The notes: generated by a model from the letters alone, not told the origin. Numbered from the stretch's first letter, positions 2,990-55,190 are shown. The stretch: 59,164 nt of DNA from Candidatus Daviesbacteria bacterium RIFCSPHIGHO2_02_FULL_36_13 (GCA_001777015.1 MFCV01000048.1:5341-64504), one strand, 5' to 3'. Translations and numbers: made by a program.

Positions 2990-2998
2990 TGGTATTAT
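2990..2998 (+). promoter_or_regulatory. Extended -10 promoter element TGgTATTAT, 6 nt upstream of ATG 3005 (leaderless-type arrangement)
   Basis: Read directly: tggtattat-tagaat-ATG. No Shine-Dalgarno sequence is possible in the gap. Confidence 0.5.
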
Positions 2999-3004
2999 TA
3001 GAAT

Positions 3005-4684
3005 ATGGTAAATGAACAAAGTTCTTCTATGAATAAAATATTTTCTTGGTTAATGAGTCATAAGGAGGTAGTAGTGCTTTTGGGATGTACAGTCCTTTTC
3101 CTACTGCTTATCTTTAAAGATCCGTTTTCGGAGAGAACTTTAATACCAAACTTTGAGCCGTATCCGGATACTCTATTTTACATAGTAAAACCATTAAATT
3201 TTCTAAAGGGTGAAGGCTTTAATTTTAGCAGAGAAGGGAGACTTGCCTACAATTTGACTCCACCTTTGTACTCTATAGCATTAATTCCTTTTTTTGCAAT
3301 AAATCCTGATCCCAGAATGGCATATTTTGCAAACATTTTTCTATCTTTAATTTCGGTAGGACTTTTTTTCTTAATTGTGAAAAAGATCACAAACAATATA
3401 TGGCTAACATGCTTAGTACTATTTTTGTACATTACCAACTACTTTTTGTATTTCATGCCAACTCTAGTAATGGCGGAAAATTTAATTCTTCCCTTATATT
3501 TAACGGCAGTATTTCTTTTAATAAGAAATAATACTCCCGCTTTTTTTATCCTCTTGGGAGTCCTTAGTGTTTGTATATATGCAACCAAGGGGGCTAATGT
3601 TCCTATTTCTGCAATGATTTTGATTTTATCAGCTATCAAAATAGTTATATCGCAATCTAAAAATACTCTCAAGATAAAATCCTTTTCGTATTTACTAGTT
3701 GGTTTTTCTGTATCCTTTATCCTTTATTCATTATTTTTTTATTACGTAACTAATTCCAATATTCTGGGGCCTCTATTGGAATATTTTGGACTAGCAAAGG
3801 AGGCAATAACTCCTAAGGCGGATGAAATTACAGCTGCTGCTTCTGCAGGTGGATGGATATCATTTAGTTATGCTAGTAAAAATTTTCCTTTATATTTAAG
3901 CTCTCTTCTTGGGGATTCCCAAAGATTTCTTTGGGACAACACCCCACTTGTTCCTAAGTATATCGCTTTCCTATCCCTGGCAGGACTTATCTTGGGGGTA
4001 ATTACAAAAAGATTCCGATTTTTAAGCGTTTCTTTAATTCTTATGATTGTAAGTTCTATCGGATTTTTACTTACCTTTTATGCTTTTGATGCAAGATATA
4101 TTTATATCGCTATACCGTCACTTTTAATTGGTTTTTCTATTCTTATCGCTTCCTTGTTTAATTTATTTAAGGCAGTAAAATACAAGAGGATTATTTTCTT
4201 AATGATTATATTATTTTTTGGTTTTTATGTTTTTAACAATGCTTTAAGAATTAAAAATCAAATTAGTCTAAATTTAAAATACGCTGAAACTCCATGGTAC
4301 TATATTTCTGTTTTAAAGCTTAATGAATACTTTACAGATGATAAAGTTATAGATGGAAAAAAACCCGTTGTGATTTCAGCTCTACCTCCTTTTTTGGTAG
4401 ATTTTTACTCTAATGGTAACTATACTTTACTACCGCTTTCGTACGAACAAGAGTTTAGAAGCGCAAAAGAAATAACATGGGGGCCTAATGATTATACGGA
4501 TCTGCCGAAATTGTATACAAAATATATAAAAGAAGGTTATGACGTTTATGTATCAAGGTATGGTTTAGGAAACGAGGTATATACAAATAGGGATTTTGAA
4601 ATCATCATGAAGGAATTTCAGTTAGATTTAGTTTGGCCAGGATGCTATGAACAATGTAATATATACACAGTTGGATTAAAATAA
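3005..4684 (+). CDS. Polytopic membrane protein with GT-C-like architecture
   Basis: 559 aa. Multi-helix N-terminal ~430 aa and a soluble C-terminal ~130 aa. Lies in the glycan locus. An alternative start at ATG 3029 (MNKIFSW) is possible. Confidence 0.5.
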   Translation: MVNEQSSSMNKIFSWLMSHKEVVVLLGCTVLFLLLIFKDPFSERTLIPNFEPYPDTLFYIVKPLNFLKGEGFNFSREGRLAYNLTPPLYSIALIPFFAINPDPRMAYFANIFLSLISVGLFFLIVKKITNNIWLTCLVLFLYITNYFLYFMPTLVMAENLILPLYLTAVFLLIRNNTPAFFILLGVLSVCIYATKGANVPISAMILILSAIKIVISQSKNTLKIKSFSYLLVGFSVSFILYSLFFYYVTNSNILGPLLEYFGLAKEAITPKADEITAAASAGGWISFSYASKNFPLYLSSLLGDSQRFLWDNTPLVPKYIAFLSLAGLILGVITKRFRFLSVSLILMIVSSIGFLLTFYAFDARYIYIAIPSLLIGFSILIASLFNLFKAVKYKRIIFLMIILFFGFYVFNNALRIKNQISLNLKYAETPWYYISVLKLNEYFTDDKVIDGKKPVVISALPPFLVDFYSNGNYTLLPLSYEQEFRSAKEITWGPNDYTDLPKLYTKYIKEGYDVYVSRYGLGNEVYTNRDFEIIMKEFQLDLVWPGCYEQCNIYTVGLK

Positions 4685-4696
4685 TATGATAAACAT

Positions 4697-5728
4697 ATGA
4701 GTGAACAAAGTTCTTTTGCAAATAAAATTTTAATTACTGGTGCGGGGGGGTACATAGGTTCCATAGCAACATCTGTGTTGCTTGACGAAGGATTTGAAAT
4801 TGTGGCGGTTGATAATTTCTCTACTGGTTACAGACAGCCTTTAGAAATTCTACAGAAAAAATATGGTGAAGAGAAACTGCGTTTTTATGATATAGATTTA
4901 ACAAAAGACGATATCTCGTCTATTTTTGATAAAGAGCAGGGGATAGATGCAGTAATTCACTATGCTGCACATTGTTTGGTAGATGAATCGATGAAGAATC
5001 CGCATAAGCATTTTTATAACAATATTTGCGGTACTTTAAATTTAATATCCTCAATGAATAAAGCTGGAGTTAAAAATCTAGTATTTTCCTCAACTTGTGC
5101 AGTTTATGGTCAATCAAAGTATATACCTATAGATGAAGATCATCCAAAGGAGCCACTGAGCCCTTATGGAGAATCGAAAAAAATATCTGAAGATATAATT
5201 ACTTGGTTCTCTAAACTAAAAGGATTAAATTTTGTCATTCTAAGATATTTTAATGTTTGTGGGGCATCTGATGATGGATTAATTGGTGATGCTAAAAAAC
5301 CGTCCCCTCATTTAGTTCAAAACACAGTAAGAGGAGCCTTGGGTATAGAACCATTCATCCTTACCTATCCGGAAGTTGATACAGAAGATAAAAGTCCAAT
5401 AAGGGATTATATTAATGTGGTCGATTTAAATTTAGCCCATAAAAAAGCAGTGGAGTATTTATTAAACGGGGGAGAAAGCGAGTTTATAAATTTAGGAACA
5501 GGCAAAGGAAATTCGGTATTAGAAATAATCAATATTGTCAAAAAAGTAACAGGAGTAGAATTTGAGGTATCAAGGGGAAATTTAAGGGAGGGGGATCCTG
5601 CTAGACTGGTGGCTTCAATAGAAAAAGCTAAAAGAATTCTGGATTGGGAACCAAAAAGAACAATAGAGGATTCTATTAATAGTTTAATTTCCTGGTACAA
5701 AAATAATCCCCAGGGTTGGAAGAAGTAA
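4697..5728 (+). CDS. galE: UDP-glucose 4-epimerase
   Basis: ILITGAGGYIGS Rossmann motif, SSTCAVYG, catalytic YGESK, 343 aa. Has an unusual ~8-aa N-terminal extension, MSEQSSFA. Confidence 0.9.
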   Translation: MSEQSSFANKILITGAGGYIGSIATSVLLDEGFEIVAVDNFSTGYRQPLEILQKKYGEEKLRFYDIDLTKDDISSIFDKEQGIDAVIHYAAHCLVDESMKNPHKHFYNNICGTLNLISSMNKAGVKNLVFSSTCAVYGQSKYIPIDEDHPKEPLSPYGESKKISEDIITWFSKLKGLNFVILRYFNVCGASDDGLIGDAKKPSPHLVQNTVRGALGIEPFILTYPEVDTEDKSPIRDYINVVDLNLAHKKAVEYLLNGGESEFINLGTGKGNSVLEIINIVKKVTGVEFEVSRGNLREGDPARLVASIEKAKRILDWEPKRTIEDSINSLISWYKNNPQGWKK

Positions 5729-8193: not shown

Positions 8194-9694
8194 CAACATT
8201 ATTCTTCTTCTCATTTTTTTTCTGGCCCTGGTGATTAGATTTCTATATTTTCCTAATAATACTTATTTTGGTTTTGATCAAGCTAGGGATGCGTACGCTG
8301 TAAGAGAAATAATGGGTGGTGATCTTAAGATTGTAGGTCCTCCAACTGCAGCTCAAATTATTCATCACGGGGTTTTGTATTACTATATATTTTCTCCACT
8401 TTATTTTTTATCCGGAGGAGATCCCACTTTAGTTTCTTTGTTTTTAAGGGTGTTAAATTCTGTAGGAATCTTCCTAGTTTTCTTAATTGTTTTTCCCTTG
8501 TTTGGTAGGGTTGTAGCGCTTATAGCGGCATTTCTTTTTGCAGTCTCCTATGAACAAACTCAATTTGCACTTTTTCTTAATCATCCTTCACTGGCTGTAA
8601 TATCAGTCTTAATTTTTTATTTAGGTTTATCAACCTGGCTTTTTAGAAAAAAAAACTGGGGGTTATTACTTGCCATTTTTGGATTCGGTTTATCAATTCA
8701 ATTTGAATTTGTAGAAATACAGCTGTTGGGAGTTTTTATTCTATTCTTGCTTTTATTTAAAAATCATCTTCCTAAAATTACACCTAAAAATTTAGCGATT
8801 TCCTTAGTTGTGTTTTTAATTCCCTTATCTTCATATGTGTTCGTTGAAATAAAGAACAATTTTAGGTTCATAAGTATTATACCAAGTTTAATGCTTAACT
8901 CTGCCGGCTCAAATCCAGGTAGCAGTGTTTCAGAGTTTATATTTTTTATAAATCGTTATTTTCATGATAACCTTATCGCCAGTAATTTTCTTGCCCCCAT
9001 ATTGGCGATAGCTTTCCTAATTATATTAATCAAGTTATTTATCTTAAACCGTTCCAGATCACAACTTACTTTTTTAAGTTTTTGGTTTTTTGGAGGTCTT
9101 TTGGTATATTTTTTTATCAACAATGATGGATATTTTTATAATACAGGAACATCAATTGCGCTTTTGATATTTGCTGCATTCTTAATATCAAAATTACATG
9201 CTAAGAGTAAATTATTAGCATTCTCACTTTTATTTTTAATACTTCTTTCTAATATGTACTTAATAACTAAAAACAATCCTTTAGGCCCTAATCAAAAAAT
9301 AAACCCACAAATAGGACTACTTCTAAAGGATCAACAGAGGGTTTTGGATTTTATTTACCAATCTGCCAGTGGGGAGGATTTTGCTGTAAATGCTCTCACA
9401 ATGCCATATAATGTGAATACTACCTGGAGTTATTTGTTTGAGTGGTATGGTAAGAAAAAATATGGATATGTTCCTGTTTGGGGTGGAGATGCGGCAGAAG
9501 GATTTCCGGGAAATTTAAAAGTAGAGACTGCTAGAAGTAAATTGCCTGATAAGCGTTTTCTAATTATAGAGCCAAATGAGGGGATACCAAGTTACCTAAG
9601 AGATAGTTTTATTGCAAACGAGGAAAATTATAACAAAACAATTGAAAAGAAAAAAATAGGTACAATGGAAATATGGGTACAACAACCGAGATGA
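8177..9694 (+). CDS. GT-C-like polytopic membrane protein (ArnT-like), tandem paralog 1
   Basis: FGFDQARDAYAVREI...IVGPP first-loop motif; TM-rich with a soluble C-terminal domain. Overlaps the upstream gene by 17 nt. Confidence 0.55.
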   Translation: MNLKSSNIILLLIFFLALVIRFLYFPNNTYFGFDQARDAYAVREIMGGDLKIVGPPTAAQIIHHGVLYYYIFSPLYFLSGGDPTLVSLFLRVLNSVGIFLVFLIVFPLFGRVVALIAAFLFAVSYEQTQFALFLNHPSLAVISVLIFYLGLSTWLFRKKNWGLLLAIFGFGLSIQFEFVEIQLLGVFILFLLLFKNHLPKITPKNLAISLVVFLIPLSSYVFVEIKNNFRFISIIPSLMLNSAGSNPGSSVSEFIFFINRYFHDNLIASNFLAPILAIAFLIILIKLFILNRSRSQLTFLSFWFFGGLLVYFFINNDGYFYNTGTSIALLIFAAFLISKLHAKSKLLAFSLLFLILLSNMYLITKNNPLGPNQKINPQIGLLLKDQQRVLDFIYQSASGEDFAVNALTMPYNVNTTWSYLFEWYGKKKYGYVPVWGGDAAEGFPGNLKVETARSKLPDKRFLIIEPNEGIPSYLRDSFIANEENYNKTIEKKKIGTMEIWVQQPR

Positions 9695-11247: not shown

Positions 11248-13061
11248 TGATTAAATTGTTTCTAGGAATATTCATATTTGTCAGTTTTCTTTTTTTAAAT
11301 ACATTTTCAGCTTTAGCCCAAGAAATAAATTGCAATGATAGATATGCCACAATAGTTAATCCCATCCGCTCAAGAAATCTCTGGATTGATAAAAGCTTAG
11401 AACCTTTGAGAGATCAATATGAGTTAGTTAACAAATACAATTTTCCGGCAACATGGCTTATTCAATTTGATGTTTTAAAAGATAAAGAAGTTTTGGATGA
11501 GATTAGAAAGTTTGATGTAAATCAGGAAATGAGTGTTTTGTTAGAAGTCTCAGAGAAATTATCGGAACAAGCCAGAGTGGTATATCCACACGGTACTTAT
11601 TGGTATAACCCTAAAGTTGTTTTTCTATCAGGCTATCCTCAATCTGACAGAATAAAAATTATTGATAAATTGTTTGATGATTTTAAAAAAGAATTTGGTT
11701 ATTATCCAAAATCAGTAGGAGCTTGGTGGATTGATTCTTACGCTTTAAAATATATGAGAAATAAATATGGTATTACCACTGCCATGATTGTTGCTGACCA
11801 GAAAACTACAGATAACTATGGAGTATGGGGACAATGGTGGGGAGTACCTTACTATCCTGATAAAGATAATATTTTAACCCCTGCAAGTAATCTAGAGAAT
11901 AAAGAAAATATTGTTGTTATTCAGTGGGCTCAGAGAGATCCCAGCTTAGCTTACGGTGAGGGTCCTATATATTCCAATTATTCTTTGCAGGCAAATGATT
12001 ACATCCGTCAGGGAAAAGATACAGAATATTTTGCTGATTTGGTGAATGTTTATCTTGACTGCAAAAATCCTTTAGGACAAATAACAATTGGTTTGGAAAC
12101 AGGAATAGAAAGCGTGGGGTATATTGATGAATACGATAATCAATTAAAGTATTTATCTCAAATTCAAGATCTTAAAGCAGTGACAATGAATCAATTTGCT
12201 GAGGATTTTTCCAGAGTTTTTCCTCAATTCCCAGAACAATTTTTGTTAGGTTCTAATTGGGATTTAAAAAATGATATGAGGATTAATGAAAAATTAGGAG
12301 ATAAGATTAAGTATCAACAGAATATAGCTTTTAAAGATTATTTTACTGCAGACAAAAATGATTTTCTTGATAGAAATTTAGAAAATTTAAATCAAAAGAA
12401 TCTAACTTATTTTCCTTGGTTTATGTTTTTGATTTTTGTTGCTGGCTTTGTCTTTAGATTTAAGAAGTTATTTAATCTTTGGGTAATAGGAACTCTGTTT
12501 CTAGCTGCATCATTTGGACTGGTTTTAAAATCAAATTACCAAATGGGCTGGGAAGTTTTTTATGGACCAGTTATTCCCTATCTTATGGTTGTACAAATAA
12601 TTATCATCATGGTTAGCTACACTATAATTTGGTTTTTACATAGAAAATTCCCCAATTTATTACTTTGGCTTATTCCACTTTCCTTTGGGTTTGATTTTAT
12701 TATTAAAGCTTTAAGGTTTTCATATTTTGAGAATAAATATTATTTTGGATTTGCCGGCGATGCCTTAAGATTTATTGGGATATCTTTTTCTAAACCGTTT
12801 AATATAGAATTTGTCAATAAAGATTTTTCCTCTGTGATATCAGCCTCCCTTCTAAGATTTGATTTTTCTAAAATTTGGGATAATTTGTATTTATCACTCA
12901 TTGCTTATCCCTTAATCCATATTATTTTTGTAATCTTGTTTGGGTATTTAATACATAGATTGCCAGTTAAATTCAGAAAGTTGATACTGGCAATACTTAC
13001 CTTGTTTACAATGCTTTTTCTTATCGATATTTTCCAAGCTGATCCGCGTTTGGTACAATGA
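11247..13061 (+). CDS. Exported protein: N-terminal signal/anchor, ~380-aa extracytoplasmic domain, C-terminal multi-pass membrane domain; function unknown
   Basis: MIKLFLGIFIFVSFLFLNTFSALA signal-like N-terminus, then a hydrophilic domain, then hydrophobic helices from about residue 390. This is the reverse of the domain order in the neighbouring GT-C proteins. Confidence 0.4.
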   Translation: MIKLFLGIFIFVSFLFLNTFSALAQEINCNDRYATIVNPIRSRNLWIDKSLEPLRDQYELVNKYNFPATWLIQFDVLKDKEVLDEIRKFDVNQEMSVLLEVSEKLSEQARVVYPHGTYWYNPKVVFLSGYPQSDRIKIIDKLFDDFKKEFGYYPKSVGAWWIDSYALKYMRNKYGITTAMIVADQKTTDNYGVWGQWWGVPYYPDKDNILTPASNLENKENIVVIQWAQRDPSLAYGEGPIYSNYSLQANDYIRQGKDTEYFADLVNVYLDCKNPLGQITIGLETGIESVGYIDEYDNQLKYLSQIQDLKAVTMNQFAEDFSRVFPQFPEQFLLGSNWDLKNDMRINEKLGDKIKYQQNIAFKDYFTADKNDFLDRNLENLNQKNLTYFPWFMFLIFVAGFVFRFKKLFNLWVIGTLFLAASFGLVLKSNYQMGWEVFYGPVIPYLMVVQIIIIMVSYTIIWFLHRKFPNLLLWLIPLSFGFDFIIKALRFSYFENKYYFGFAGDALRFIGISFSKPFNIEFVNKDFSSVISASLLRFDFSKIWDNLYLSLIAYPLIHIIFVILFGYLIHRLPVKFRKLILAILTLFTMLFLIDIFQADPRLVQ

Positions 13062-13065
13062 TTTA

Positions 13066-15155: not shown

Positions 15156-15179
15156 TATTCCCCATATAATTAACTACAT

Positions 15180-15782
15180 ATGGCAGTTTTTAAAGATAGA
15201 AATGGTAGGGATCTAAGTTTAGGTGAGGCTTCAGGAAAGATAGGCAACAGATTTTATAATTATTGGGCTGATTTCTTTTTATTCTTAGGGACCATTCTTA
15301 TTAATTGTCCGTCACATCACCTGAGAAGATTAGTAATAAGGTTTGCTGGTGCAAAGATAGGACGTGGTTCAAGTATTCATATGGGTTTAAGCTTTTTTTC
15401 TTTAAAAAAGGTGAGGATTGGACAGGATACTATTATTGGCAGAAATGCATTTTTGGATGGTAGGGATGTTATTAATATTGGCAGTCACGTTGATATTGCC
15501 TCAGACGTAATGATTTATAACTCTGAACATGATATAAACTCAGATGATTTTCATGCCATATTGGGGCCTGTAGAAATAGGGGACTATGTATTCATTGGTC
15601 CAAGGGCTATTATTTTGCCGGGAGTTAAAATTGGCAAAGGGGCAGTGATAGCAGCAGGGGCAGTTGTTACCAAAGATGTTGGGGAATTTAAGATTGTTGG
15701 AGGGGTGCCTGCACAAGTTATTGGAGAAAGAAATTTAAAAGATCCTCATTATAAATTAGGTAGGGCCAGGTGGTTTCAGTGA
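15180..15782 (+). CDS. Left-handed beta-helix (hexapeptide repeat) O-acetyltransferase
   Basis: Repeated [LIV]G-x4 hexapeptides (IGRGSSIH, IGQDTIIG, IGSHVDIA, IGDYVFIG, IGKGAVIA). N-terminal hydrophobic segment as in WcaF/Lac-type sugar acetyltransferases. Confidence 0.8.
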   Translation: MAVFKDRNGRDLSLGEASGKIGNRFYNYWADFFLFLGTILINCPSHHLRRLVIRFAGAKIGRGSSIHMGLSFFSLKKVRIGQDTIIGRNAFLDGRDVINIGSHVDIASDVMIYNSEHDINSDDFHAILGPVEIGDYVFIGPRAIILPGVKIGKGAVIAAGAVVTKDVGEFKIVGGVPAQVIGERNLKDPHYKLGRARWFQ

Positions 15783-25597: not shown

Positions 25598-25612
25598 GAG
25601 TAAAATTCCCTA

Positions 25613-32046: not shown

Positions 32047-32062
32047 GGTATAATTAGCTTCG

Positions 32063-33247: not shown

Positions 33248-33248
33248 C

Positions 33249-39407: not shown

Positions 39408-39414
39408 TCATTAT

Positions 39415-41593: not shown

Positions 41594-41610
41594 CTGCCCA
41601 GAGAGAATGT

Positions 41611-42924: not shown

Positions 42925-42933
42925 TGCTAGAAT
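42925..42933 (+). promoter_or_regulatory. Extended -10 TGcTAGAAT, 7 nt upstream of the ileS ATG (leaderless-type)
   Basis: tgctagaat-ttagcct-ATG; no Shine-Dalgarno sequence. Confidence 0.5.
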
Positions 42934-42940
42934 TTAGCCT

Positions 42941-45772: not shown

Positions 45773-46839
45773 AGTTTATTGAATCTGTCAATTGGCCTAT
45801 TTTTCTTGTCAGCCTTTCACTGGTATCTATTGGAATTCTGGTTATTTATTCATCTTCCCCTGAACTGGCTTTTCAGCAGTTTATTTATACTATTGTTGGC
45901 TTAATTCTTTTTTTATTCATTTCCCATTTGGATTTACATTCCATCAGAAAACTTATTAATCCTTTATTTTTTCTTACAATTTTACTTTTGATTGTGGTGT
46001 TGGTTTTGGGAGTTGAAACCAGAGGTTCAGTTAGGTGGATTCCCTTAGGCTTTTTTAATATTCAGCCATCTGAATTTGCAAAACCAGTAATTCTTCTTTT
46101 TATTGCCTCTTTCTGGGCTAAGAGTATATCTTCCTGGACGAATATTTTTAAGAGCTTGTTTTTAATTTCTCCAATCCTATTTTTGGTTTTTATACAGCCT
46201 GATTTAGGATCGACATTAACTCTTGTATCTATCTGGGTCGGTATTCTTTTTGTTTCAAGAGTATCTGTTAAAAAAATTATTGTTTTAATCTTAATTGCAG
46301 CTTTAGTCATACCTGTGGGCTGGACATTTTTAAGGGACTATCAAAAACAAAGAATTGTGGGATTTTTAAATCCCCAAACAGATCCTTTAGGACGTGGTTA
46401 TAACCTAATTCAATCAACTATAGCTGTTGGATCAGGAGAAATTCTTGGAAGGGGACTGGGAAGAGGCACTCAATCCAGGCTGCAGTTTTTGCCGGAATTT
46501 AGAACTGATTTTATATTTGCTTCTATTGCTGAGGAGTGGGGGTTTTTGGGATGTTTTGTGATCTTATCTTTGTATATGTATCTTTTGGTCTTTTTTTTAA
46601 GATTGGCTTCTCAGATTGATGATAATTTTAGCTTTCTTATTATTATTGGAGTTTTTTCTATGCTTTTGTTTCAAGTTTTTGTCAATGTAGGTATGAATAT
46701 AGGAATTGTGCCAATAACAGGTATTACTTTGCCTCTTATTTCCTATGGGGGGTCGTCTTTAATTGTAACCTTCGTTTGTTTAGGGCTAGTTGCTTCTGTT
46801 GCCAAAGCAAGAGCCAGAATTGACACAGAAGCCTATTAA
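45769..46839 (+). CDS. rodA: SEDS-family protein RodA
   Basis: QPSEFAKP, TDFIFASIAEEWGFLG, PLISYGGSS. Outside the dcw cluster, so assigned as the elongation paralog. Confidence 0.8.
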   Translation: MKFIESVNWPIFLVSLSLVSIGILVIYSSSPELAFQQFIYTIVGLILFLFISHLDLHSIRKLINPLFFLTILLLIVVLVLGVETRGSVRWIPLGFFNIQPSEFAKPVILLFIASFWAKSISSWTNIFKSLFLISPILFLVFIQPDLGSTLTLVSIWVGILFVSRVSVKKIIVLILIAALVIPVGWTFLRDYQKQRIVGFLNPQTDPLGRGYNLIQSTIAVGSGEILGRGLGRGTQSRLQFLPEFRTDFIFASIAEEWGFLGCFVILSLYMYLLVFFLRLASQIDDNFSFLIIIGVFSMLLFQVFVNVGMNIGIVPITGITLPLISYGGSSLIVTFVCLGLVASVAKARARIDTEAY

Positions 46840-46848
46840 GGCTACAAT
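46820..46848 (+). promoter_or_regulatory. Consensus promoter TTGACA-17 nt-TACAAT, ending 7 nt before the rplU ATG (leaderless-type)
   Basis: TTGACA 46820-46825 (inside the rodA 3' end), TACAAT 46843-46848, ATG 46856. Confidence 0.65.
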
Positions 46849-46855
46849 TGTGCAC

Positions 46856-47164
46856 ATGTTTGATTTTGCAATTTGTGAAATATCAGGAAAACAATACAAG
46901 ATAATTCCTAATCAGGAGATCTTGGTGGATTGGCTTGGGGAAGAGACAAAAAAAATTGATGCTTCGGTGCTGATGTTATCTGAAGGTGGAAAAGTTAAAA
47001 TTGGTACTCCATATCTTAAAGAAAAGCTAACTTTGGAGTGTTTAGGAACTGTGAAAAGTAAAAAGATCAGGGTGGCTAAATTTCATGCTAAGGCAAATTT
47101 CAGAAAAGTAACAGGTTCTAGACCTAAAAAAACAAATCTTGTACATTCCGTGAAAACAAAGTAA
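46856..47164 (+). CDS. rplU: 50S ribosomal protein L21
   Basis: MFDFAICEISGKQYKI start; 102 aa; followed by rpmA. The longer track ORF overlaps rodA and is rejected. Confidence 0.9.
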   Translation: MFDFAICEISGKQYKIIPNQEILVDWLGEETKKIDASVLMLSEGGKVKIGTPYLKEKLTLECLGTVKSKKIRVAKFHAKANFRKVTGSRPKKTNLVHSVKTK

Positions 47165-47178
47165 AATATCCTTAAGTT

Positions 47179-47424
47179 ATGGCACATAAAACAGGTGGAG
47201 GTTCAACCAGAAAAAATAGAGATTCAATTTCAAAACGTTTAGGCGTGAAAATTTGGGGTGGAGCTAAAGCTGAACCCGGAAATATCATTATTAGACAAAA
47301 AGGAAATAAATTTTACCCAGGAGTTGGAACACAGCAGGGAAATGACTATACAATCTTTTCAGTGGTTTCCGGAAAAGTTGAATTTAAAAAGAAACTCTCT
47401 AAAAGAGTTGTTAGTGTGGTTTAA
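47179..47424 (+). CDS. rpmA: 50S ribosomal protein L27
   Basis: MAHKTGGGSTRKNRDSISKRLGVK...IIIRQKGNKFYPG. Confidence 0.95.
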   Translation: MAHKTGGGSTRKNRDSISKRLGVKIWGGAKAEPGNIIIRQKGNKFYPGVGTQQGNDYTIFSVVSGKVEFKKKLSKRVVSVV

Positions 47425-47430
47425 AATTTT

Positions 47431-48276
47431 ATGGAAGAGCAGATTTACGAGTTAGAAATAGAATTACTTCAGCCAAACCCTCTTCAGCCCCGTGGTCTTA
47501 TAACTCCTGAATCTCTGTCAGAGCTTGCAGAATCTATTAGGGCACACGGAATTTTAGAGCCTATTGTTGTTGCTAAAACTCCTGCAGGATATCAAATTAT
47601 TGCAGGGGAGCGAAGATGGAGAGCATCAAAAGTTGTTGGACTTCCAAAGGTTCCAGTCAGAATAAGAGAAACTTCTCCTCAGGGAATGCTGGAGATGGCT
47701 ATTGTAGAAAATGTTCAAAGAATTGACTTAAATCCTTTAGAGAGAGCTCAAGCTTATAAAAGATTGATGGAGGAGTTTGGATTAACCAATGCAGAAATAT
47801 CAGAAAGAGTTTCTAAATCTCCATCCTACATTTCAAACACCATCAGACTTTTAACCCTTCCAGATGCCCTCAAGGATGCTTTAATGGCTGGAGCAACAAC
47901 TGAAGGACATGCCAGAGCAATGTCTGCTTTAGAGGATCCAAGACTGATTATTGATGCATATAAGGAAGTATTGAAAAGAAATCTTTCAGTCAGAGGAACT
48001 GAGGAATTAGTTAGAAGATTTAGAGCTAAAAGTGGAATCGGTCCCAAAAGGAGTGCTGATATTTCTTCTATGCATATAATGTCTGAGGAAATAGATAAAG
48101 TTCAATCTGACCTGTCAGATGCTTTATCAAGAAAAATTGAAAAAGCTTCTGTCAAATGTTCTCAAACCGGTAAAAAAGCTAAAGTTGAGCTGATGCTTGA
48201 GGGGGATCCTACAAAAACTACAGCAATTTTAGAAGATATAAGACAGGCAATTGTAGGATATTTTAACCTCCAGTAG
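47431..48276 (+). CDS. parB: ParB/Spo0J-family partition protein
   Basis: LQPNPLQPR, ILEPIVV, IIAGERRWRA, HTH segment NAEISERVSKSPSYISNTIRLL. Confidence 0.85.
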   Translation: MEEQIYELEIELLQPNPLQPRGLITPESLSELAESIRAHGILEPIVVAKTPAGYQIIAGERRWRASKVVGLPKVPVRIRETSPQGMLEMAIVENVQRIDLNPLERAQAYKRLMEEFGLTNAEISERVSKSPSYISNTIRLLTLPDALKDALMAGATTEGHARAMSALEDPRLIIDAYKEVLKRNLSVRGTEELVRRFRAKSGIGPKRSADISSMHIMSEEIDKVQSDLSDALSRKIEKASVKCSQTGKKAKVELMLEGDPTKTTAILEDIRQAIVGYFNLQ

Positions 48277-48281
48277 TTTTA

Positions 48282-48866
48282 TCACTTATCAGTTAACATT
48301 CCTATGTTTTTAAGTGGCCAATATCTAAAGAAAGCCCTTCCTACTAATTCTTCCTGGGTTACAGGGCCCCAGTCTCTTGAGTCAGAAGAATGTCCCCTGT
48401 TATCACCTATCACAAAATATTGATTAGCACCTGCTTTAACTGTAGATCCTTCTGTTAAAAATTGTCCTGAGGGAGTTAGGGTATTTGGAGGTAAGTAAGG
48501 TTCTTCCAGTTTTATTCCATTCAAATATATAAAATTTTTCTCAACTTTAATACTATCCCCAGGTAAGGCAATAATTCTTTTTATAAAATCCTGTGATTCA
48601 TCCCTGGGATTTTTTAATACCACAATCTGACCTCTTTTGGTTTCAGAAAATCTGTAGCTTATTTTTTCTGTGATTAGATAATCTCCATTATCTAGGGTGG
48701 GATACATAGAAAGTCCTGAGACTTTGTGAAATTGGGCTACAAAAAGATAAAGGAGGGCAAAGATTGCCCCAAACACCACCAGAGTCTGAATAAAATCAAT
48801 AACATGAGTGCCTAAATTATCAAAAAAGCCTTGAGGCTGTTGACCTATACTTGCCCTTGGATCCAT
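48282..48866 (-). CDS. lepB: Signal peptidase I
   Basis: SGLSMYPTL (catalytic Ser), KRIIALPGD (Lys box), GDNRGHSSDSR. Confidence 0.9.
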   Translation of the reverse strand: MDPRASIGQQPQGFFDNLGTHVIDFIQTLVVFGAIFALLYLFVAQFHKVSGLSMYPTLDNGDYLITEKISYRFSETKRGQIVVLKNPRDESQDFIKRIIALPGDSIKVEKNFIYLNGIKLEEPYLPPNTLTPSGQFLTEGSTVKAGANQYFVIGDNRGHSSDSRDWGPVTQEELVGRAFFRYWPLKNIGMLTDK

Positions 48867-48874
48867 ATCATAAG

Positions 48875-48883
48875 ATTATCTCA
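48875..48883 (-). promoter_or_regulatory. Extended -10 TGaGATAAT (minus strand), 8 nt upstream of the lepB ATG
   Basis: The minus strand reads tgagataat-cttatgat-ATG. Confidence 0.4.
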
Positions 48884-48887
48884 AATT

Positions 48888-48896
48888 TGGTACAAT
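48888..48896 (+). promoter_or_regulatory. Extended -10 TGgTACAAT, 6 nt upstream of ATG 48903 (leaderless-type)
   Basis: tggtacaat-ttagga-ATG. Confidence 0.5.
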
Positions 48897-48902
48897 TTAG
48901 GA

Positions 48903-50138
48903 ATGAGGAATATATTAAGGCAGAGTTCTTGGTTAATGGGTGCTCAGGTTCTAACAAGGATTGTCAGCTTTTTTTATACAATTTTTCTGGCCAATAAATT
49001 AGGGGTTGAAGGGTTTGGACTAATTACTGTTGCTATTGCTTATTTTGCCATACTATCTGCTTTAACTGATTTTGGATTTAATAGATTTTTAATAAGAGAG
49101 ATTGCTAGGGGAGAATTAAAGATTGCTGATATGTTGGGAAATATTTTAATGCTCCGTGTCCTTTTGCCTTCTATTGTTATAATTCTTTTTTCTATTGTTT
49201 TGTATTCTTTAGACCCTGACAAAATGAGGGTTAGTCTTATTTTGATTGCAGTTTTGGCAGTATTTCCAGAATCTATTGCTGTAACTTTGGATGGAATATT
49301 TATTGGCTTACAAAAATTACAATATTCGGCAATTTCTTTAGTAATTGCCTCAAGCTCTGCCGCTATTTTAGGATTTTATTTAGTAAATGGGGGTTCAGGT
49401 CCGGTCGGTGCTGTAATTGCTATAATTTTTGCCCAAATTATGTGGGCATTGTGCTTATTAATTTTTTTGTTAAGAAAAAAATTGCTTTCATTTTCAAAAT
49501 TAAATTTTTCTTTGATGAAAAAAATCCTTGTTGGGTCTTTGCCGTATGGATTAATAGGGGTTCTAGGACTTTTATATTTTAGGATAGACAGTGTAATTTT
49601 GTCATACCTGCGGGGAAGTTTTGAAACAGGTATATATGGAGCAGGATATAGATTTCTGGAATCCATAATTTTTATTCCAGGTGCTTTTGGATTTGCGCTT
49701 TTTCCATCCTTGGCAAAGCTTCATGATACTAATATTTCCGATATGAAAAAACTTTACTTTAGGTCACTAAAACTGATGGGACTTTTAGGGTTAATTATTT
49801 TTTTAGGATATCTATTTATTCTGCCTGAAATAATAAGGATACTTTTGCCAAATTATTCACAGTCAGTTGATGTTATAAGAATTTTATCTTTTTCCATTCC
49901 ATTTATTTTTCTGGCAACACCTGGTGTACAAGTTTTACTTTCATCTGATAAATATTTAAAAAGTGTTATTTTTCTTTCTTTGTTTACAGTGGTACTTAAT
50001 ATTATTTTGAATTTTATATTTGTCCCTAAATTCGGATATCTAGCTGCAGCTTATATAACTGTTTTTTCTGATGTTACCTCTTTTGTAATTTTTTATATCT
50101 TCCTTCAAAGAAAGATTTTTAATAATGAAAAAAGTTAG
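48903..50138 (+). CDS. Wzx-like oligosaccharide flippase (MOP superfamily, polysaccharide biosynthesis protein)
   Basis: 12-TM-like profile. N-terminus ILRQSSWLMGAQVLTRIVSFFYTIFLANKLG, typical of this family. Start is ATG 48903; the longer track ORF overlaps lepB. Confidence 0.7.
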   Translation: MRNILRQSSWLMGAQVLTRIVSFFYTIFLANKLGVEGFGLITVAIAYFAILSALTDFGFNRFLIREIARGELKIADMLGNILMLRVLLPSIVIILFSIVLYSLDPDKMRVSLILIAVLAVFPESIAVTLDGIFIGLQKLQYSAISLVIASSSAAILGFYLVNGGSGPVGAVIAIIFAQIMWALCLLIFLLRKKLLSFSKLNFSLMKKILVGSLPYGLIGVLGLLYFRIDSVILSYLRGSFETGIYGAGYRFLESIIFIPGAFGFALFPSLAKLHDTNISDMKKLYFRSLKLMGLLGLIIFLGYLFILPEIIRILLPNYSQSVDVIRILSFSIPFIFLATPGVQVLLSSDKYLKSVIFLSLFTVVLNIILNFIFVPKFGYLAAAYITVFSDVTSFVIFYIFLQRKIFNNEKS

Positions 50139-51099: not shown

Positions 51100-52190
51100 A
51101 ACAGGCTGTTGGCAAAAATGGAATGGATTAGCAATCCTAGTATGGCAACCGGAGGTAGGTGTAAAATGAAAAGCAGATAAACGGTCAGTCCTACAATTCC
51201 TGTTGTTGCTAAAACATAGAGCAAAGAAAAATCATTAGTTGTTGATCCCCTGCTTTCCAAAAATTGAGAATCTGATAAATTATATTCCCTGATAGCAAAC
51301 TTGTAGGTATTAAAGCCTACTCCCATAAGGGGTGAATGCTGAAAAATGGTTAATCCTTGTTGCCAGGTGGATAATCTGAATGAGGCAGATTGCTCCCTGT
51401 TTATTCCACGGGGAGTGGCAACAGCTTGTGTATATATCTGGAATCCAATTAAAAGCCCAATAAAAAGAATGAAAGTCCCTAGAAGTATTTTTTTAGATTT
51501 TTGAAAAAATGCTAAAGAAATTCCACTTACTAAAAACATAAGATAGCTGGAACGTGAGAAGGTAGTGAGCAATGCTAGATATACAATCGTCATTGCGAGG
51601 AGTGTAAACGACGAAGCAATCTTTTTAGGGATTGCCGCAGCCACTTCGTGGCCTCGCAATGACGTGAGTAGTAGTAATGTTAATACAAAATATGCACCTG
51701 CAAAATTTGGATCTAAAAATGTAGAGACTGTTCTGAAATAATGAGGGTCCCAACCAAAAGGTTGTAAAAACATCAGATCTGGAAGTATTAAAAATTGGAT
51801 GAGTCCTAAAACAGCAAGACCGACTCCAGAATATATTAAAGTCTCTTTAATTCTTTTTCTAAAATCCTCAAAGGCTCCACTAAAAATAATATGTGCAAAT
51901 AAAATATAAACAAAAAATCTTAAAGTATAAGAAAAGCTGGAAAGGTACTCTGGAAAATTTAAACTAAGTGGGGTAACAATTAAGGATAATATTCCAACAC
52001 CTGTAAATAGGTACCCTATTTTTAAAAGTTTATTTGGTTTTTGTAGTTTAAATTTTAATTTGGCTATACCAATCAAAGAGAGGGCTAAAACAAGTAAATC
52101 AAGTAGGGTTGGTCCCTGAACACCAAATACTGGAATTTTTATAAGCTGACCTGCTAAAATCGAAATAACCAAAAGGTAAGCAATTAACAT
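51042..52190 (-). CDS. O-antigen ligase/polymerase-like polytopic membrane protein carrying an in-frame palindromic repeat insertion
   Basis: Helical membrane protein with a TTFSRSSYL segment and a late loop, as in 16324-17742. Residues SLRGHEVAAAIPKKIASSFTLLAMT are encoded by the 51588-51664 repeat. Confidence 0.55.
   Translation of the reverse strand: MLIAYLLVISILAGQLIKIPVFGVQGPTLLDLLVLALSLIGIAKLKFKLQKPNKLLKIGYLFTGVGILSLIVTPLSLNFPEYLSSFSYTLRFFVYILFAHIIFSGAFEDFRKRIKETLIYSGVGLAVLGLIQFLILPDLMFLQPFGWDPHYFRTVSTFLDPNFAGAYFVLTLLLLTSLRGHEVAAAIPKKIASSFTLLAMTIVYLALLTTFSRSSYLMFLVSGISLAFFQKSKKILLGTFILFIGLLIGFQIYTQAVATPRGINREQSASFRLSTWQQGLTIFQHSPLMGVGFNTYKFAIREYNLSDSQFLESRGSTTNDFSLLYVLATTGIVGLTVYLLFILHLPPVAILGLLIHSIFANSLFYPPILLWLILFSIKKESI
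51588..51664. repeat. 77-bp imperfect palindromic (REP/MITE-like) element inside a CDS
   Basis: Arms cgtcattgcgagg (51588-51600) and cctcgcaatgacg (51652-51664) are perfect reverse complements. Inner pair gcaatc (51616-51621) / gattgc (51630-51635). Confidence 0.8.
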
Positions 52191-53225
52191 ATGAAATTTT
52201 ATCCTAGTGTAACTATTATAGTTCTAATTTGGATTTTGTCAGTATCCATGATTTTTTTTATTGGCAAAGAAGGAAATTTCTTTGAAAGCTTAAGCAATTG
52301 GGATGGGGGACACTACATTGGAATTGCCCAAAATGGATACAGTGAAAAATTCCAATATGCTTTTTTCCCTTTGTACCCAATAACAATTAATTTACTAAAT
52401 AACTTTGTAGGAAATTATTTACTTTCTGCTGTTTTAATAAGTATAATATCTACTTTTTTTGGACTGCAGCTTTTATATAAGTTAATGTCTTTGGATTTTG
52501 ACCGGAAAATTGCAGATAAAGTTATAGCAGGGATTTTAATTTTTCCAACATCATTTTATTTTCTAACAGCATATTCAGAGGGATTATTTTTTCTTTTGAC
52601 TATTGCCGCATTTTATTTTTTGCGGACTAGAAAACTGTTTTGGGCGGTAGTATTTGCTTCCCTAGCATCTGCTACTAGACTCTCAGGATTGGCTGTAGTT
52701 TTGGGATTGATTATAGAAGTTTATTTAACCGAAGGAATTAACAAAAAGAATTGGTACATATTACTTTCTCCTTTAGGATTTTTAATATATTGCTACTTTT
52801 TATATACAAATACAGGAGATCCATTTTACTTTATAACAGCAGAAAATCACTGGCTCAGGTCCTTATCAATTCCAGGATTAGGGTTTTGGGAAACTTTAAA
52901 AAGTATTTTCACACCACAGTTTATAGAAAAAAATATCACAGCAGTTACTGATTTAATTTTTTCTATATTTGGATTAGGTATGGTAATCAGAGCTTTCAGA
53001 TTTTTGCCAATCTCTTACTGCCTTTTTGCTTTCATATCAGTTGCCCTACCGCTCTTTACACCATCTCTTTCTTCAATCCCTCGATTTTTGCTGCCTGTAT
53101 TTCCAATTTTTATATTACTAGCTTTTATTAAAGACCGAAATTTAAGCTTCTTTTACCAATTACTATTTATAATGCTTCTCTCAGCGTTCTCTATTATGTA
53201 TATAAGTGGAAAGTGGGTTGCTTAA
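52191..53225 (+). CDS. PIG-V/mannosyltransferase-like polytopic membrane protein (paralog of 5728-6768)
   Basis: NWDGGHYIGIAQNGY motif; same MKF start and length class as the paralog. Confidence 0.65.
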   Translation: MKFYPSVTIIVLIWILSVSMIFFIGKEGNFFESLSNWDGGHYIGIAQNGYSEKFQYAFFPLYPITINLLNNFVGNYLLSAVLISIISTFFGLQLLYKLMSLDFDRKIADKVIAGILIFPTSFYFLTAYSEGLFFLLTIAAFYFLRTRKLFWAVVFASLASATRLSGLAVVLGLIIEVYLTEGINKKNWYILLSPLGFLIYCYFLYTNTGDPFYFITAENHWLRSLSIPGLGFWETLKSIFTPQFIEKNITAVTDLIFSIFGLGMVIRAFRFLPISYCLFAFISVALPLFTPSLSSIPRFLLPVFPIFILLAFIKDRNLSFFYQLLFIMLLSAFSIMYISGKWVA

Positions 53226-53944
53226 GGTTGGTAGACTACTCTTCTTGAAATTTCAGTAATATTAGAAGCAGGATCAACTGATTTAATGGTAAAAATATTT
53301 TCTCCATCATTTAAATTTTGGTCAGAAGAAAAATTCCCATCCTTATCAATAATAATTTGAGCATCATTCACAAAAACTTCTGCATTTACTTCTGTATTAC
53401 CTGTAATTTTTATCTTTTTTTCTCCACCCTGAATGGTTTTGCCGTCTTCTGGTTCAGAAACATTTAAGGTTGGTTTTTCATTATCATAAGTAATTCTAAA
53501 GGTTTTTGAAGGCAGGGATTCCCTGTCTTCACTATCTATTGATTTGGCATAAAGGCTATTAATTCCTAAACCTAAAGAAACATTTTTAAAGGTAAAATCT
53601 CCCTCAGATGAAGCATCAACAATTTCTATTTCCTGACCATCCAGAAATAGTTTAACTTTAGATCCTGGGGTTGAGTAGCCTTTTACATCAATTTCTGCTG
53701 TATTGGTTGCCTCATAAGGAATATTTAAAACAGGAGGAGCAAGTTGAGCATTTTCAGTTATATTTGTTGCAGTTCTACTTTTTTCTTTAAAAATTCCTGT
53801 AACCAATCCCACTCCATTTACAAAGGTTGGTAGGATCCACTGAATTGTGGCAAAAAGAAGAAGGGTGATAATTATTAAGGTAACAAAAAAGTTCCTTTTG
53901 CTCCTTTTAACATACCTTCTGCTAGATCTTGCTCTATAACTCAT
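53222..53944 (-). CDS. Membrane-anchored protein with two Ig-like (bacterial Ig/Big-type) repeats
   Basis: N-terminal TM, then two similar ~80-aa beta-type repeats (VKGYSTPGSKVKLFLDGQEI... and ITGNTEVNAEVFVNDAQII...DGENIFTIKSVDPASN). Confidence 0.5.
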   Translation of the reverse strand: MSYRARSSRRYVKRSKRNFFVTLIIITLLLFATIQWILPTFVNGVGLVTGIFKEKSRTATNITENAQLAPPVLNIPYEATNTAEIDVKGYSTPGSKVKLFLDGQEIEIVDASSEGDFTFKNVSLGLGINSLYAKSIDSEDRESLPSKTFRITYDNEKPTLNVSEPEDGKTIQGGEKKIKITGNTEVNAEVFVNDAQIIIDKDGNFSSDQNLNDGENIFTIKSVDPASNITEISRRVVYQP

Positions 53945-53950
53945 TTTTTT

Positions 53951-53959
53951 AGTATATCA
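53951..53959 (-). promoter_or_regulatory. Extended -10 TGaTATACT (minus strand), 6 nt upstream of ATG 53944 (leaderless-type)
   Basis: The minus strand reads tgatatact-aaaaaa-ATG. Confidence 0.5.
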
Positions 53960-54078: not shown

Positions 54079-54087
54079 TGATATAAT
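54079..54087 (+). promoter_or_regulatory. Extended -10 TGaTATAAT (consensus hexamer), 7 nt upstream of ATG 54095 (leaderless-type)
   Basis: tgatataat-tccaacc-ATG. Confidence 0.55.
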
Positions 54088-54094
54088 TCCAACC

Positions 54095-54661
54095 ATGGGC
54101 AAGGCAGAAATATTGCGCGCTGCAAATGTAGAGCATGAAGCTACTATCCACCCATGGACTGAAATTGAATTGAGTAAGGCATTTGCAAGAATTTTAGGTC
54201 CCCGAAATTCTGCTGATCCCAATCGCTTTGATCCTATAACCGATCATGATGCACATATAGTAAGAAAGGGACTTCTATTAGATGGTATTGATTATTATTG
54301 TGCTCTTCTCTACCAGGGACCATATGATTATGTAAAAAATTCTTTTGGTTACTTTGTTCCATTTCCAGAGATTACTAAATTTCAGATCGGTGAAAATGGA
54401 GAAGTAACCAGTGTACCTCTAGTATTAGAGGTAGGAAGATTTTCAGGGAAAATTGATCTTTTATACCGATTAAAAATCGAGGGAATGGAAAGCCTTTTAG
54501 GAGTAGGTAGAACTGATAAAACAGATCTAGAAGATATCGAAGAAAATGGGGTGATTATAGGAAGAGAAACTCAAGAATTGGTATTACCTAGCGATCCCAA
54601 AAAACTTAGTACCATGGAATTTACTTTCTTAAGACCTGGGACGCAATTCCCGTCTCTTTAA
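54095..54661 (+). CDS. Hypothetical protein
   Basis: ORF. Start moved from TTG 54053 to ATG 54095 because a consensus extended -10 sits 7 nt upstream of it. No recognisable motif. Confidence 0.45.
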   Translation: MGKAEILRAANVEHEATIHPWTEIELSKAFARILGPRNSADPNRFDPITDHDAHIVRKGLLLDGIDYYCALLYQGPYDYVKNSFGYFVPFPEITKFQIGENGEVTSVPLVLEVGRFSGKIDLLYRLKIEGMESLLGVGRTDKTDLEDIEENGVIIGRETQELVLPSDPKKLSTMEFTFLRPGTQFPSL

Positions 54662-54767
54662 AATAAAATTAGGTACGAAAAAACATGAAAGAATTTACGA
54701 GATTAAACCCTAAGATTAGCCCGTTATATCAGGCTATTCGCCACTTTTCGGGCAGTGGCATCCCCTC

Positions 54768-54842
54768 TGGAGCGGTGGACCGGACTTGAACCGGCGACCT
54801 TCTCCTTGGGAAGGAGACATTCTACCGCTGAACTACCACCGC
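54768..54842 (-). tRNA. tRNA-Gly (anticodon CCC), CCA encoded
   Basis: Hand-folded cloverleaf of gcggtggtagttcagcggtagaatgtctccttcccaaggagaaggtcgccggttcaagtccggtccaccgctcca. Anticodon loop ttCCCaa. Confidence 0.9.
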
Positions 54843-55175
54843 TTAAACTAATTGATTAATTTTGGCAGCCATGATGTAGTCATTTTCTGAGAGTCCACCT
54901 ATGGCGTGAGTGTAAAGGGTGATGTTGACCTTTTTATAGCTGTGGATATTTATATTTGGATGATGATCTTCAGAATTAGCAAGGTCAGCCACTTTATTTA
55001 CAAATCCCATAGCTTCTTTAAAATCTTTGAATTCAAATTTTCTTTGAAGTTTTAAGGTATCTCCCTCTAAAATTTCCCAGCCTTCTACAGCTTTTAGATA
55101 TTCCTGAGCTTGAGTTAGTTTATATGGATCTATTCCACCTTCACAAGGCACACAATGTTTACTAGTAAAGTCCAT
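54843..55175 (-). CDS. Pterin-4-alpha-carbinolamine dehydratase
   Basis: HHPNINIHSYKKVNITLYTH with the GLSENDYIMAAKI signature. 110 aa. Its stop codon abuts the tRNA-Gly 5' end. Confidence 0.85.
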   Translation of the reverse strand: MDFTSKHCVPCEGGIDPYKLTQAQEYLKAVEGWEILEGDTLKLQRKFEFKDFKEAMGFVNKVADLANSEDHHPNINIHSYKKVNITLYTHAIGGLSENDYIMAAKINQLV

Positions 55176-55181
55176 AGGTGT

Positions 55182-55190
55182 ATTCTACCA
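55182..55190 (-). promoter_or_regulatory. Extended -10 TGgTAGAAT (minus strand), 6 nt upstream of ATG 55175 (leaderless-type)
   Basis: The minus strand reads tggtagaat-acacct-ATG. It forms an inverted repeat with the plus-strand gtagaat at 55198-55204, upstream of tRNA-Thr. Confidence 0.5.

Follow-up and report, generated by a model that had tools for sequence, protein, structure and literature searches.

Promoters set against start codons suggest leaderless transcription units in a Microgenomates bacterium

In a 59,164-nt stretch of the genome of Candidatus Daviesbacteria bacterium RIFCSPHIGHO2_02_FULL_36_13 (GCA_001777015.1 MFCV01000048.1:5341-64504; hereafter the window), near-consensus -10 promoter elements, often with a TGn extension, recur 6-8 nt before the start codons of genes that begin transcription units. 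An earlier reading of this stretch by a model, made from the DNA alone (the sequence-only reading), had proposed that these promoters give rise to widespread leaderless mRNAs. That proposal is supported by a sharp peak in the promoter-to-start distance, by the anatomy of the promoters, by a start-codon signature and by conservation at orthologues, and we consider it likely, with a probability of roughly 0.8, that the units concerned are leaderless or have leaders of at most ~3 nt.

Sequences and approach

The window (59 kb, 32-38% GC) contains a glycosyltransferase/polysaccharide cluster, recO, a division and cell-wall cluster running from mraZ to ftsZ, ileS, rplU-rpmA, parB, lepB, three tRNAs and other genes. 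An Rfam scan of the window returned the three tRNAs only, with no leader or riboswitch elements. Its IleS protein best matches Candidatus Daviesbacteria (79, 77 and 71% identity) and then Levy-, Woese-, Gottesman-, Curtiss- and Collierbacteria; we therefore take the source to belong to the Microgenomates, within the Candidate Phyla Radiation (CPR). Assembly GCA_001776855.1 and metagenomes from the Rifle aquifer contain this contig too.

The comparison set comprised 80 Microgenomates loci from an IleS search (each up to 23 kb, 1.55 Mb in total), together with metagenome contigs. Genes were called mechanically and blind to motifs, as long open reading frames (ORFs) whose start is the first ATG, GTG or TTG past an in-frame stop. 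Homology-fixed starts were set for 40 orthologue families from N-terminal conservation, using the most upstream majority column; conserved internal Met columns, such as those of the IleS HIGH region and the LepB catalytic Ser-Met, were not taken as starts. Motif-centred counts, which are independent of gene models, scored a motif if the ATG after it was the first codon of an ORF of 100 codons or more. A Shine-Dalgarno (SD) core was defined as a GGAG, GAGG or AGGA 4-mer at -17 to -4. Spacers between a -10 element and a start codon are written N6, N7 and so on.

Results

A distance peak at 6-7 nt

Scanning the distance from -10 elements to start codons, a check that the sequence-only reading had suggested, shows that these elements cluster tightly at 6-7 nt, both in the window and across the 80 related loci. 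Among the 553 unit-initial ATG genes of this combined set, TGnTAnnnT occurs 27 times at spacer 6 and ~3 times at each other offset. Both TGnTAnnnT and TATAAT hardly occur at spacers 0-5, rise abruptly to a maximum at 6, fall over spacers 7-9 and then return to background. With homology-fixed starts, TAnAAT was found 51, 49, 29 and 28 times at spacers 6, 7, 8 and 9, respectively, over a background of ~5, and motif-centred counting gave 214 instances of TAnAAT at 6-8 nt from the ATG of a long ORF, when ~49 were expected. The frequencies of a -10 element at 5-9 nt and of the SD core were as follows, all four sequence sets having been run through an identical pipeline:

Bacillus phage SPbeta, 100 kb: -10 element 2.7%, SD 4-mer core 46%
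E. coli, 50 kb: -10 element 2.3%, SD core 33%
Window: -10 element 22%, SD core 20%
80 related loci: -10 element 19.6% (shifted-window control 4.5%), SD core 8.9%

We take the SPbeta control to be 35% GC. The murE-centred metagenome loci include four non-CPR contigs of still lower GC (25-28%), which had 0% -10 boxes and 38-62% SD; AT-richness is therefore not the source of the signal.

Sites in the window

All 12 -10/ATG pairs listed by the sequence-only reading were recovered at the coordinates it gave, and a strict -10 element lies at spacer 5-9 in ~15 of the ~55 window genes with curated starts, to which lepB is added by way of its conserved TGnGATAAT. Beyond that list, further sites of this type precede starts at 13066 (TGgTACAAT-N6), 9673, 4697, 52190 (minus strand) and 11247. 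The sites are:

2990-3007, plus strand: TGgTATTAT-N6-ATG, extended -10; 559-aa membrane protein with no Pfam match
4685-4699, plus strand: TATGAT-N6-ATG, NAD-dependent epimerase/dehydratase; extra candidate that may be chance
9661-9675, plus strand: TACAAT-N6-ATG, 524-aa membrane protein; extra candidate, outside the comparative data
13051-13068, plus strand: TGgTACAAT-N6-ATG, GT4 glycosyltransferase (Pfam); internal promoter 4 nt past the upstream stop, newly found here
15165-15182, plus strand: TATAAT-N9-ATG, hexapeptide acyltransferase; weak case
25601-25615, plus strand: TAAAAT-N6-ATG, recO; weak case, outside the comparative data
32049-32065, plus strand: TATAAT-N8-ATG, murE in an N-terminally short CPR form
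39400-39417, plus strand: TGgCATAAT-N6-ATG, ftsQ; doubtful case, hexamer lacking T1
42925-42943, plus strand: TGcTAGAAT-N7-ATG, ileS
46820-46858, plus strand: TTGACA-17-TACAAT-N7-ATG, rplU (L21); -35 within the 3' end of the upstream ftsW/rodA-family gene
48864-48883, minus strand: TGaGATAAT-N8-ATG, lepB (signal peptidase I)
48888-48905, plus strand: TGgTACAAT-N6-ATG, Wzx-type flippase, divergent from lepB
52188-52201, minus strand: TAAAAT-N5-ATG, Wzy_C/O-antigen-ligase-family gene, with a divergent gene at 52191
53942-53959, minus strand: TGaTATACT-N6-ATG, 240-aa protein with a Glucodextran_B domain
54079-54097, plus strand: TGaTATAAT-N7-ATG, 188-aa orphan protein
55173-55190, minus strand: TGgTAGAAT-N6-ATG, pterin-4a-carbinolamine dehydratase, whose stop codon abuts tRNA-Gly

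If real, the promoter before 15180 probably leaves a leader of 2-3 nt.

Several of these starts are tightly packed. Only 36 bp separate the start codon of lepB from that of the flippase (48864-48905), and both -10 boxes lie inside the spacer. The genes at 52190 (minus) and 52191 (plus) share a CATATG with zero spacer (52188-52193); the -10 of the minus-strand gene sits in codons 2-4 of the plus-strand gene, an arrangement kept in relatives. A glycosyltransferase gene divergent from the gene at 3005 (2944-2975, minus strand) has an ambiguous start, either GTG 2946 or ATG 2859; GTG 2946 is preceded by TAATAT-N6 and by an AAGGAG overlapping the start codon.

Promoter anatomy, gene context and start codons

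The start-proximal boxes have the flanking elements of promoters. A TGn extension accompanies 30% of them and 6% of equally good hexamers elsewhere, with G at -14 reaching 52%, and seven sites in the window read TGnTAnnnT, resembling sigma-70 extended -10 promoters. At a distance of 16-18 nt, at least 4/6 matches to TTGACA are found for 51% of boxes (15% in the control) and at least 5/6 matches for 20% (2.6% in the control); the -35 columns of the start-proximal set read T68/T49/G53. Enrichment of both TGn and the -35 persists when ileS and rplU are left out.

Box frequency depends strongly on gene context (Fisher P ~6e-16). Genes that overlap or abut an upstream gene have a box in 6% of cases, which is the control level; the frequency is 14% for gaps of 1-14 nt, 53% for 15-29 nt, 31% for 30-99 nt and 37% for divergent genes. 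The murG family illustrates this dependence, as TGnTAnAAT is found at N6-9 where murG stands alone and no box is present where murG overlaps the upstream gene by 4 nt (ATGA), the window included.

RNA polymerase usually initiates ~7 nt past the -10 element and favors a purine that follows a pyrimidine. With a spacer of 6, this usual start falls on the first base of the start codon (A or G), which is thus the predicted +1. A pyrimidine occupies -1 in 80% of boxed genes and in 64% of other genes. Moreover, the 206 boxed genes start with ATG in 185 cases, GTG in 19 and TTG in 2, whereas 53 of 639 genes elsewhere start with TTG (P ~3e-5). In its preference for a preceding pyrimidine, its depletion of TTG and its tolerance of GTG, the start codon of boxed genes thus looks like a transcription start.

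Conservation of promoters and of start codons

At ileS, 44 of 74 orthologues with homology-fixed starts carry a strict -10 at N6-9, compared with 4 in the control, and the conserved N-terminus M.KFKPVSSQVDFP is preceded by TGnTAnAAT-N6-9-ATG. The -10 is retained at N6-9 in 52 of 71 rplU orthologues, most of which also retain TTGACA; TTGACA-17-TAnAAT-N6-8-ATG persists in ~55 species despite diverged flanks, and the N-terminus fits the L21 profile. For the flippase, TGnTAnAAT stands at exactly N6 in 12 of 16 orthologues. Control counts in these families were at most 4. Further families reach 44-100%, and ftsZ, ftsA, rpmA, parB and ftsW remain at control level. Some ~20 Daviesbacteria-like loci have TTGCAT-18-TGnGATAAT-N7/8-ATG in common at lepB (MDP...). 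Upstream of murE, TATAATTAGC is found at N7-N9 in four close relatives (L088, L090, L091 and L092) and at N13-15 in more distant ones. Relatives retain TATAATTTCAT before the minus-strand gene at 52190 (the strict rule is satisfied in 8 of 18) and the TATACT of the gene at 53944, at N6-14. Finally, TGnTAT[TC]AT-N6/N9-ATG is retained before the gene at 3005 in three orthologous contigs, one of them behind an IS66 insertion.

Two side observations concern these genes. In a close relative, an IS66-family transposase lies just upstream of the 3005 orthologue (L084 1193-2659, L085 1394-2860), with TGgTATTAT-N6-ATG unchanged. The MurE protein has 394 aa and aligns from around position 95 of MurE profiles, implying that it lacks the N-terminal domain; between murE and the next mur gene lies a separate ORF, ~203-212 aa in length (33192/33219-33830; window 32063-33830).

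Conservation also bears on an alternative in which the promoters are real, the true starts lie downstream of the listed ATGs and the mRNAs have leaders. The clearest candidate for such a start is GTG 3074, in frame in the 3005 gene, which follows a perfect SD (AAGGAGGT) at a spacing of 5 nt. Nevertheless, homologues of this protein begin MV[ND], ~15 residues ahead of the first helix, and GTG 3074 falls inside that first hydrophobic helix, past the conserved residues. We rejected it as the start on the strength of the conserved MV[ND] and the conserved promoter. Public annotations could also be read in favor of downstream starts. In public copies of window 46856-50138 (L168-L177), the flippase is called from ATG 48936 (400 aa) and not from 48903 (411 aa), and one NCBI record gives a lepB product of 172 aa instead of 194 aa. 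The shorter flippase call, however, loses 11 conserved N-terminal residues: the sequence M.xILRQ.SWL is conserved from the listed ATG, and the profile starts at residue 6. Standard callers appear to mis-annotate leaderless starts. More generally, protein conservation runs from the listed ATGs of ileS, rplU, the flippase, lepB, the gene at 53944 (MSYR.RS) and the 3005 family, and profile alignments extend to residues 2-8 (residue 2 for the dehydratase at 55175). The N-termini of IleS, RplU, the flippase, the dehydratase and a PolX-family protein discussed below all agree with profiles or orthologues. The 54095 protein has no homologues, and its start could be of the downstream kind. Across species, however, the distance from box to ATG is conserved as well as the box itself, and we regard downstream starts as an improbable general explanation.

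Shine-Dalgarno use and a ribosome-binding role for the box

The sequence-only reading had contrasted leaderless first genes with SD-led internal genes, giving three examples of the latter, all of which are present as described:

14066-14078, plus strand: GGGAGG-N5-TTG, a true SD-led internal gene
21455-21465, plus strand: GGAGGT-N2-ATG, an SD-led internal gene
29147-29158, plus strand: AAGGAG-N3-ATG, an SD-led internal gene in the rsmH position

These examples stand, but the general contrast does not, as SD sequences are rare everywhere (~9% of genes in relatives, ~20% in the window). By homology-fixed starts and related tests, little SD signal is seen in the relatives. The SD core is present in 8-10% of their genes, compared with 46-60% in SPbeta by the same test, and predicted pairing to ACCUCCUUA, scored from homology-fixed starts, does not exceed that of control windows. 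Genes lacking a start-proximal box reach the pairing cut-off in 22% of cases, and upstream control windows do so in 27%. There is, however, a small peak of GGAGG at spacers 5-8, and SD is therefore functional but rare. Upstream of non-leaderless genes, A is enriched, G is depleted and T is found at -1. The 3' end of 16S rRNA, which carries the anti-SD, was not found in the 2.8 Mb of loci searched.

This scarcity of SD sequences and the A-rich, G-poor upstream regions of non-leaderless genes would suit an alternative in which leadered mRNAs use the TAnAAT box as an AT-rich, non-SD element that binds ribosomes or acts as an enhancer, as in GeneMarkS-2 group B (Bacteroidetes). The box is also found ahead of some genes with gaps below 30 nt. 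Against this alternative, TGn and TTGACA-like sequences accompany the boxes at promoter spacing, and the context data argue for a promoter: the box is at control level in overlapping genes, peaks where a short gap can accommodate a promoter and, at murG, appears only where the gene stands alone. Depletion of TTG and the -1 pyrimidine likewise fit a transcription start and not a ribosome site. One motif before first and internal genes alike, the mark of group B with its leadered mRNAs, was not observed. We consider a ribosome-binding role for the box very unlikely.

Chance expectation

The sequence-only reading had argued that its matches were too many for a composition artefact. This argument holds for where the motif lies and fails for how often it occurs. 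In dinucleotide shuffles of the window, 3.2 matches to TGNTANNNT-N6-ATG are expected and 5 are seen; for TGNTANNNT-N7-ATG, 2.9 are expected and 3 are seen. Both counts are near the shuffle level, and therefore the bare motif is not enriched in the window. Its placement is another matter, as 5/5 N6 matches and 2/3 N7 matches coincide with the first codon of a long ORF, compared with 1/4 at a control spacing of N12. For TGnTAnnnT, 169 copies among 118,328 positions predict 0.23 coincidences with gene starts (54 genes, 3 offsets), and 7 are seen (Poisson P ~6e-9). Motif-centred counting in the window gives 8 copies of TGnTAnnnT at 6-8 nt, against 0.43 per offset elsewhere (P ~6e-5).

That the boxes reflect nothing beyond the commonness of -10-like hexamers in 33% GC DNA, as the shuffle-level counts, the uninformative generic promoter scan described below and the 4-5% of genes matched by shifted control windows might suggest, is refuted in general, although it may hold for two or three weak internal cases: 7/8 matches lie on gene starts where 0.23 are expected, the peak is sharp and confined to 6-7 nt, non-CPR loci of even lower GC and SPbeta give 0-3%, and the arrangement is conserved at orthologues.

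Weighing leaderless transcription

Several points weigh against our interpretation that these units are leaderless or nearly so. First, spacers of 8-9 nt, which make up ~1/3 of sites (murE, lepB and 15180 among them), may give leaders of 1-3 nt, and the same promoters lie up to 15 nt from the start in relatives. These longer spacers and the variable spacing in relatives indicate a continuum between leaderless mRNAs and very short leaders. Second, individual cases are weak. The ftsQ site, one of the weaker cases of the sequence-only reading, is not supported: a -10 is present in 0/11 orthologues, and CATAAT fails the strict rule. Some two or three of the weak internal cases 4697, 9673, 11247 and 15180 could be chance matches, as could two or three among recO, 15180, 9673 and 4697, which lie outside the comparative data. 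A homologue search with the 54095 protein was empty, placing its start beyond a check by conservation. Third, the statistics have limits of their own. The strict -10 rule matches 4-5% of shifted control windows, pooled P values treat orthologues as independent and, viewed family by family, with orthologues non-independent, a box is present in at least 40% of members in ~8/40 families. A generic scan for two-hexamer promoters and terminators found no excess over shuffles, with 42 promoter-like sites against 57 expected; it ranked the rplU promoter first in the region (11/12 match) and was otherwise uninformative in AT-rich DNA. Finally, the public contigs found by look-up to encode exactly this RplU are all metagenome assemblies, and our interpretation rests on DNA.

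Discussion

A model for leaderless expression in Microgenomates

In about 1/4 of all genes of this bacterium, and roughly half of its unit-initial genes, a housekeeping promoter of the sigma-70 type lies directly against the start codon. Such a promoter consists of TAnAAT, often with TGn and sometimes with a TTGACA -35, and its -10 ends 6-8 nt before the ATG or, occasionally, GTG. The data show this architecture, its statistics, its promoter character and its conservation; where transcription begins and how the mRNA is translated are inferred from them. The +1 would be the first base of the start codon, A or G, yielding an mRNA with no SD site and no 5' leader (or one of ~3 nt or less), and translation would take the leaderless route, with the ribosome and initiator tRNA assembling on a 5'-terminal AUG. 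The arrangement is a conserved property of particular Microgenomates genes, among them ileS, rplU, lepB, murE and the Wzx flippase, and permits extreme packing, with divergent start codons 0-36 bp apart.

Relation to known systems

Leaderless genes of this general type have been described in bacteria. 'TA-led' genes, with TANNNT ~10 bp before the start, are widespread; they exceed 20% of genes in Actinobacteria and Deinococcus, are present in Lactococcus and Streptococcus, and make up ~18% in five Mycoplasma genomes, and the box of low-GC Firmicutes is TAtAAT-like (Zheng et al. 2011, PMC3160421). In GeneMarkS-2 group C, a Pribnow box lies 6-8 nt before the start in 25-50% of transcripts (Lomsadze et al. 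2018, PMC6028130). Nearly all group C genomes with genetic code 11 have high GC, and the low-GC members of the group are Mollicutes, which use code 4 (33 genomes; MetaGeneMark-2, bioRxiv 10.1101/2022.07.25.500264). A literature search found no paper tying leaderless expression to CPR/Patescibacteria, Saccharibacteria, Microgenomates or Parcubacteria; a transcription start site set for Nanosynbacter lyticus TM7x is listed in PMC12641261. We would therefore place the present case as a known mode of expression in what appears to be a new lineage for it, the CPR/Microgenomates.

The likeness to TA-led and group C genes is close. Here too the box is enriched at a fixed 6-8 nt before the start, belongs to operon-first genes without SD, precedes purine-first start codons, involves ~20-25% of genes and is TAtAAT-like in low GC, as in low-GC Firmicutes. 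In contrast to published code-11 members of group C, which are almost all high-GC, the genomes here are 33-40% GC with code 11. Moreover, the remaining genes of group C genomes in the strict sense carry SD, whereas SD is near background here. Mycobacterium tuberculosis, Corynebacterium glutamicum, Streptomyces coelicolor and Deinococcus deserti, to the extent that they are described where cited in PMC6028130, have the same promoter-to-start geometry with ATG or GTG first. Their genomes are GC-rich and have SD on leadered genes, and their leaderless transcriptomes were mapped by experiment and are documented by dRNA-seq (differential RNA sequencing) and proteomics, whereas our case is built on sequence and conservation.

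Mycoplasma and other Mollicutes share small, reduced, AT-rich genomes, strong reliance on the -10 and many SD-less and 'atypical' genes, but they are an unrelated lineage using code 4, whereas the CPR case has code 11 and frequent TGn. Bacteroidetes of group B resemble our genomes in seldom using SD although an anti-SD is reported to be present, and in their A-rich, G-poor upstream regions; their motif is a non-promoter element before first and internal genes, whereas here a promoter is tied to unit starts.

Wider implications

More broadly, Microgenomates, and perhaps the CPR as a whole, might have largely abandoned SD-led initiation. Abutting promoters would then give units their leaderless start, a role that in some cases would fall to tRNA processing with 0-7 nt of leader left over, and the remaining genes would use coupling or A-rich, unstructured leaders. 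This wider proposal is speculative, and we hold it only tentatively. CPR ribosomes are reduced, with no uL30, mostly no bL9 and a short bS1, and loss of the anti-SD has been reported only in some Parcubacteria (Tsurumaki et al., PMC9297842). If the proposal is true, then together with these reduced ribosomes it would amount to a distinct translation-initiation regime, convergent with that of mitochondria, and would bear on the question of whether leaderless initiation is ancestral.

There are several practical implications. On our results, leaderless expression would be abundant in a further lineage, one that is deep-branching and host-dependent, has low GC, code 11 and a stripped-down ribosome and, by the title of a 2015 paper by Brown and colleagues, reportedly comprises more than 15% of bacterial diversity; the results also suggest that SD pairing is marginal in this lineage. 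CPR genomes are known almost solely from metagenomes, and their gene starts are set by callers tuned to SD; a leaderless gene model could correct starts across thousands of them. The rplU (TTGACA-17-TACAAT) and lepB (TGnGATAAT) promoters would be concrete choices for first genetic tools. Finally, the coordinates given above state exactly where the 5' ends of metatranscriptome reads should fall.

Other features of the window

Mitochondria release leaderless mRNAs by tRNA punctuation, and some junctions in our sequences are reminiscent of this process. A tRNA-Asp (56923-56996, plus strand) lies behind a putative promoter, TTGTCA-17-TGaTACAAT (56884-56912), and the ATG of a PolX-family DNA polymerase at 57003 follows 6 nt past the tRNA 3' end (window 56884-57008). 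Across all sequences, 12/96 tRNAs have a same-strand gene start within 0-7 nt of the 3' end, with no -10 or SD, which suggests near-leaderless mRNAs released by tRNA processing. At the dehydratase gene, the TAA stop (54843-54845) runs directly into tRNA-Gly, whose first base is 54842 (window 54768-54850, minus strand). The junction implies that mRNA and tRNA are co-transcribed; stop codons that adjoin a tRNA in this way are rare in relatives (~6/90). The resemblance to mitochondrial punctuation lies in these sequence junctions, and most units here, unlike those of mitochondria, have their own promoter.

An identical 17-mer, ATTCTGCCCAGARAGAA, occurs at 28736-28752 and 41591-41607 (plus strand), with a weaker copy at 28810-28826, and contains an inverted repeat, TCTGnnCAGA. 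The 17-mer overlaps the last bases of the likely mraZ and ftsZ -10 boxes and extends downstream. At up to 3 mismatches, 4 copies are found where 0.7 are expected, and the core is also present in four related loci (L013, L027, L088 and L089). The 17-mer may be an operator common to both division promoters, whose leaders would be ~10-17 nt.

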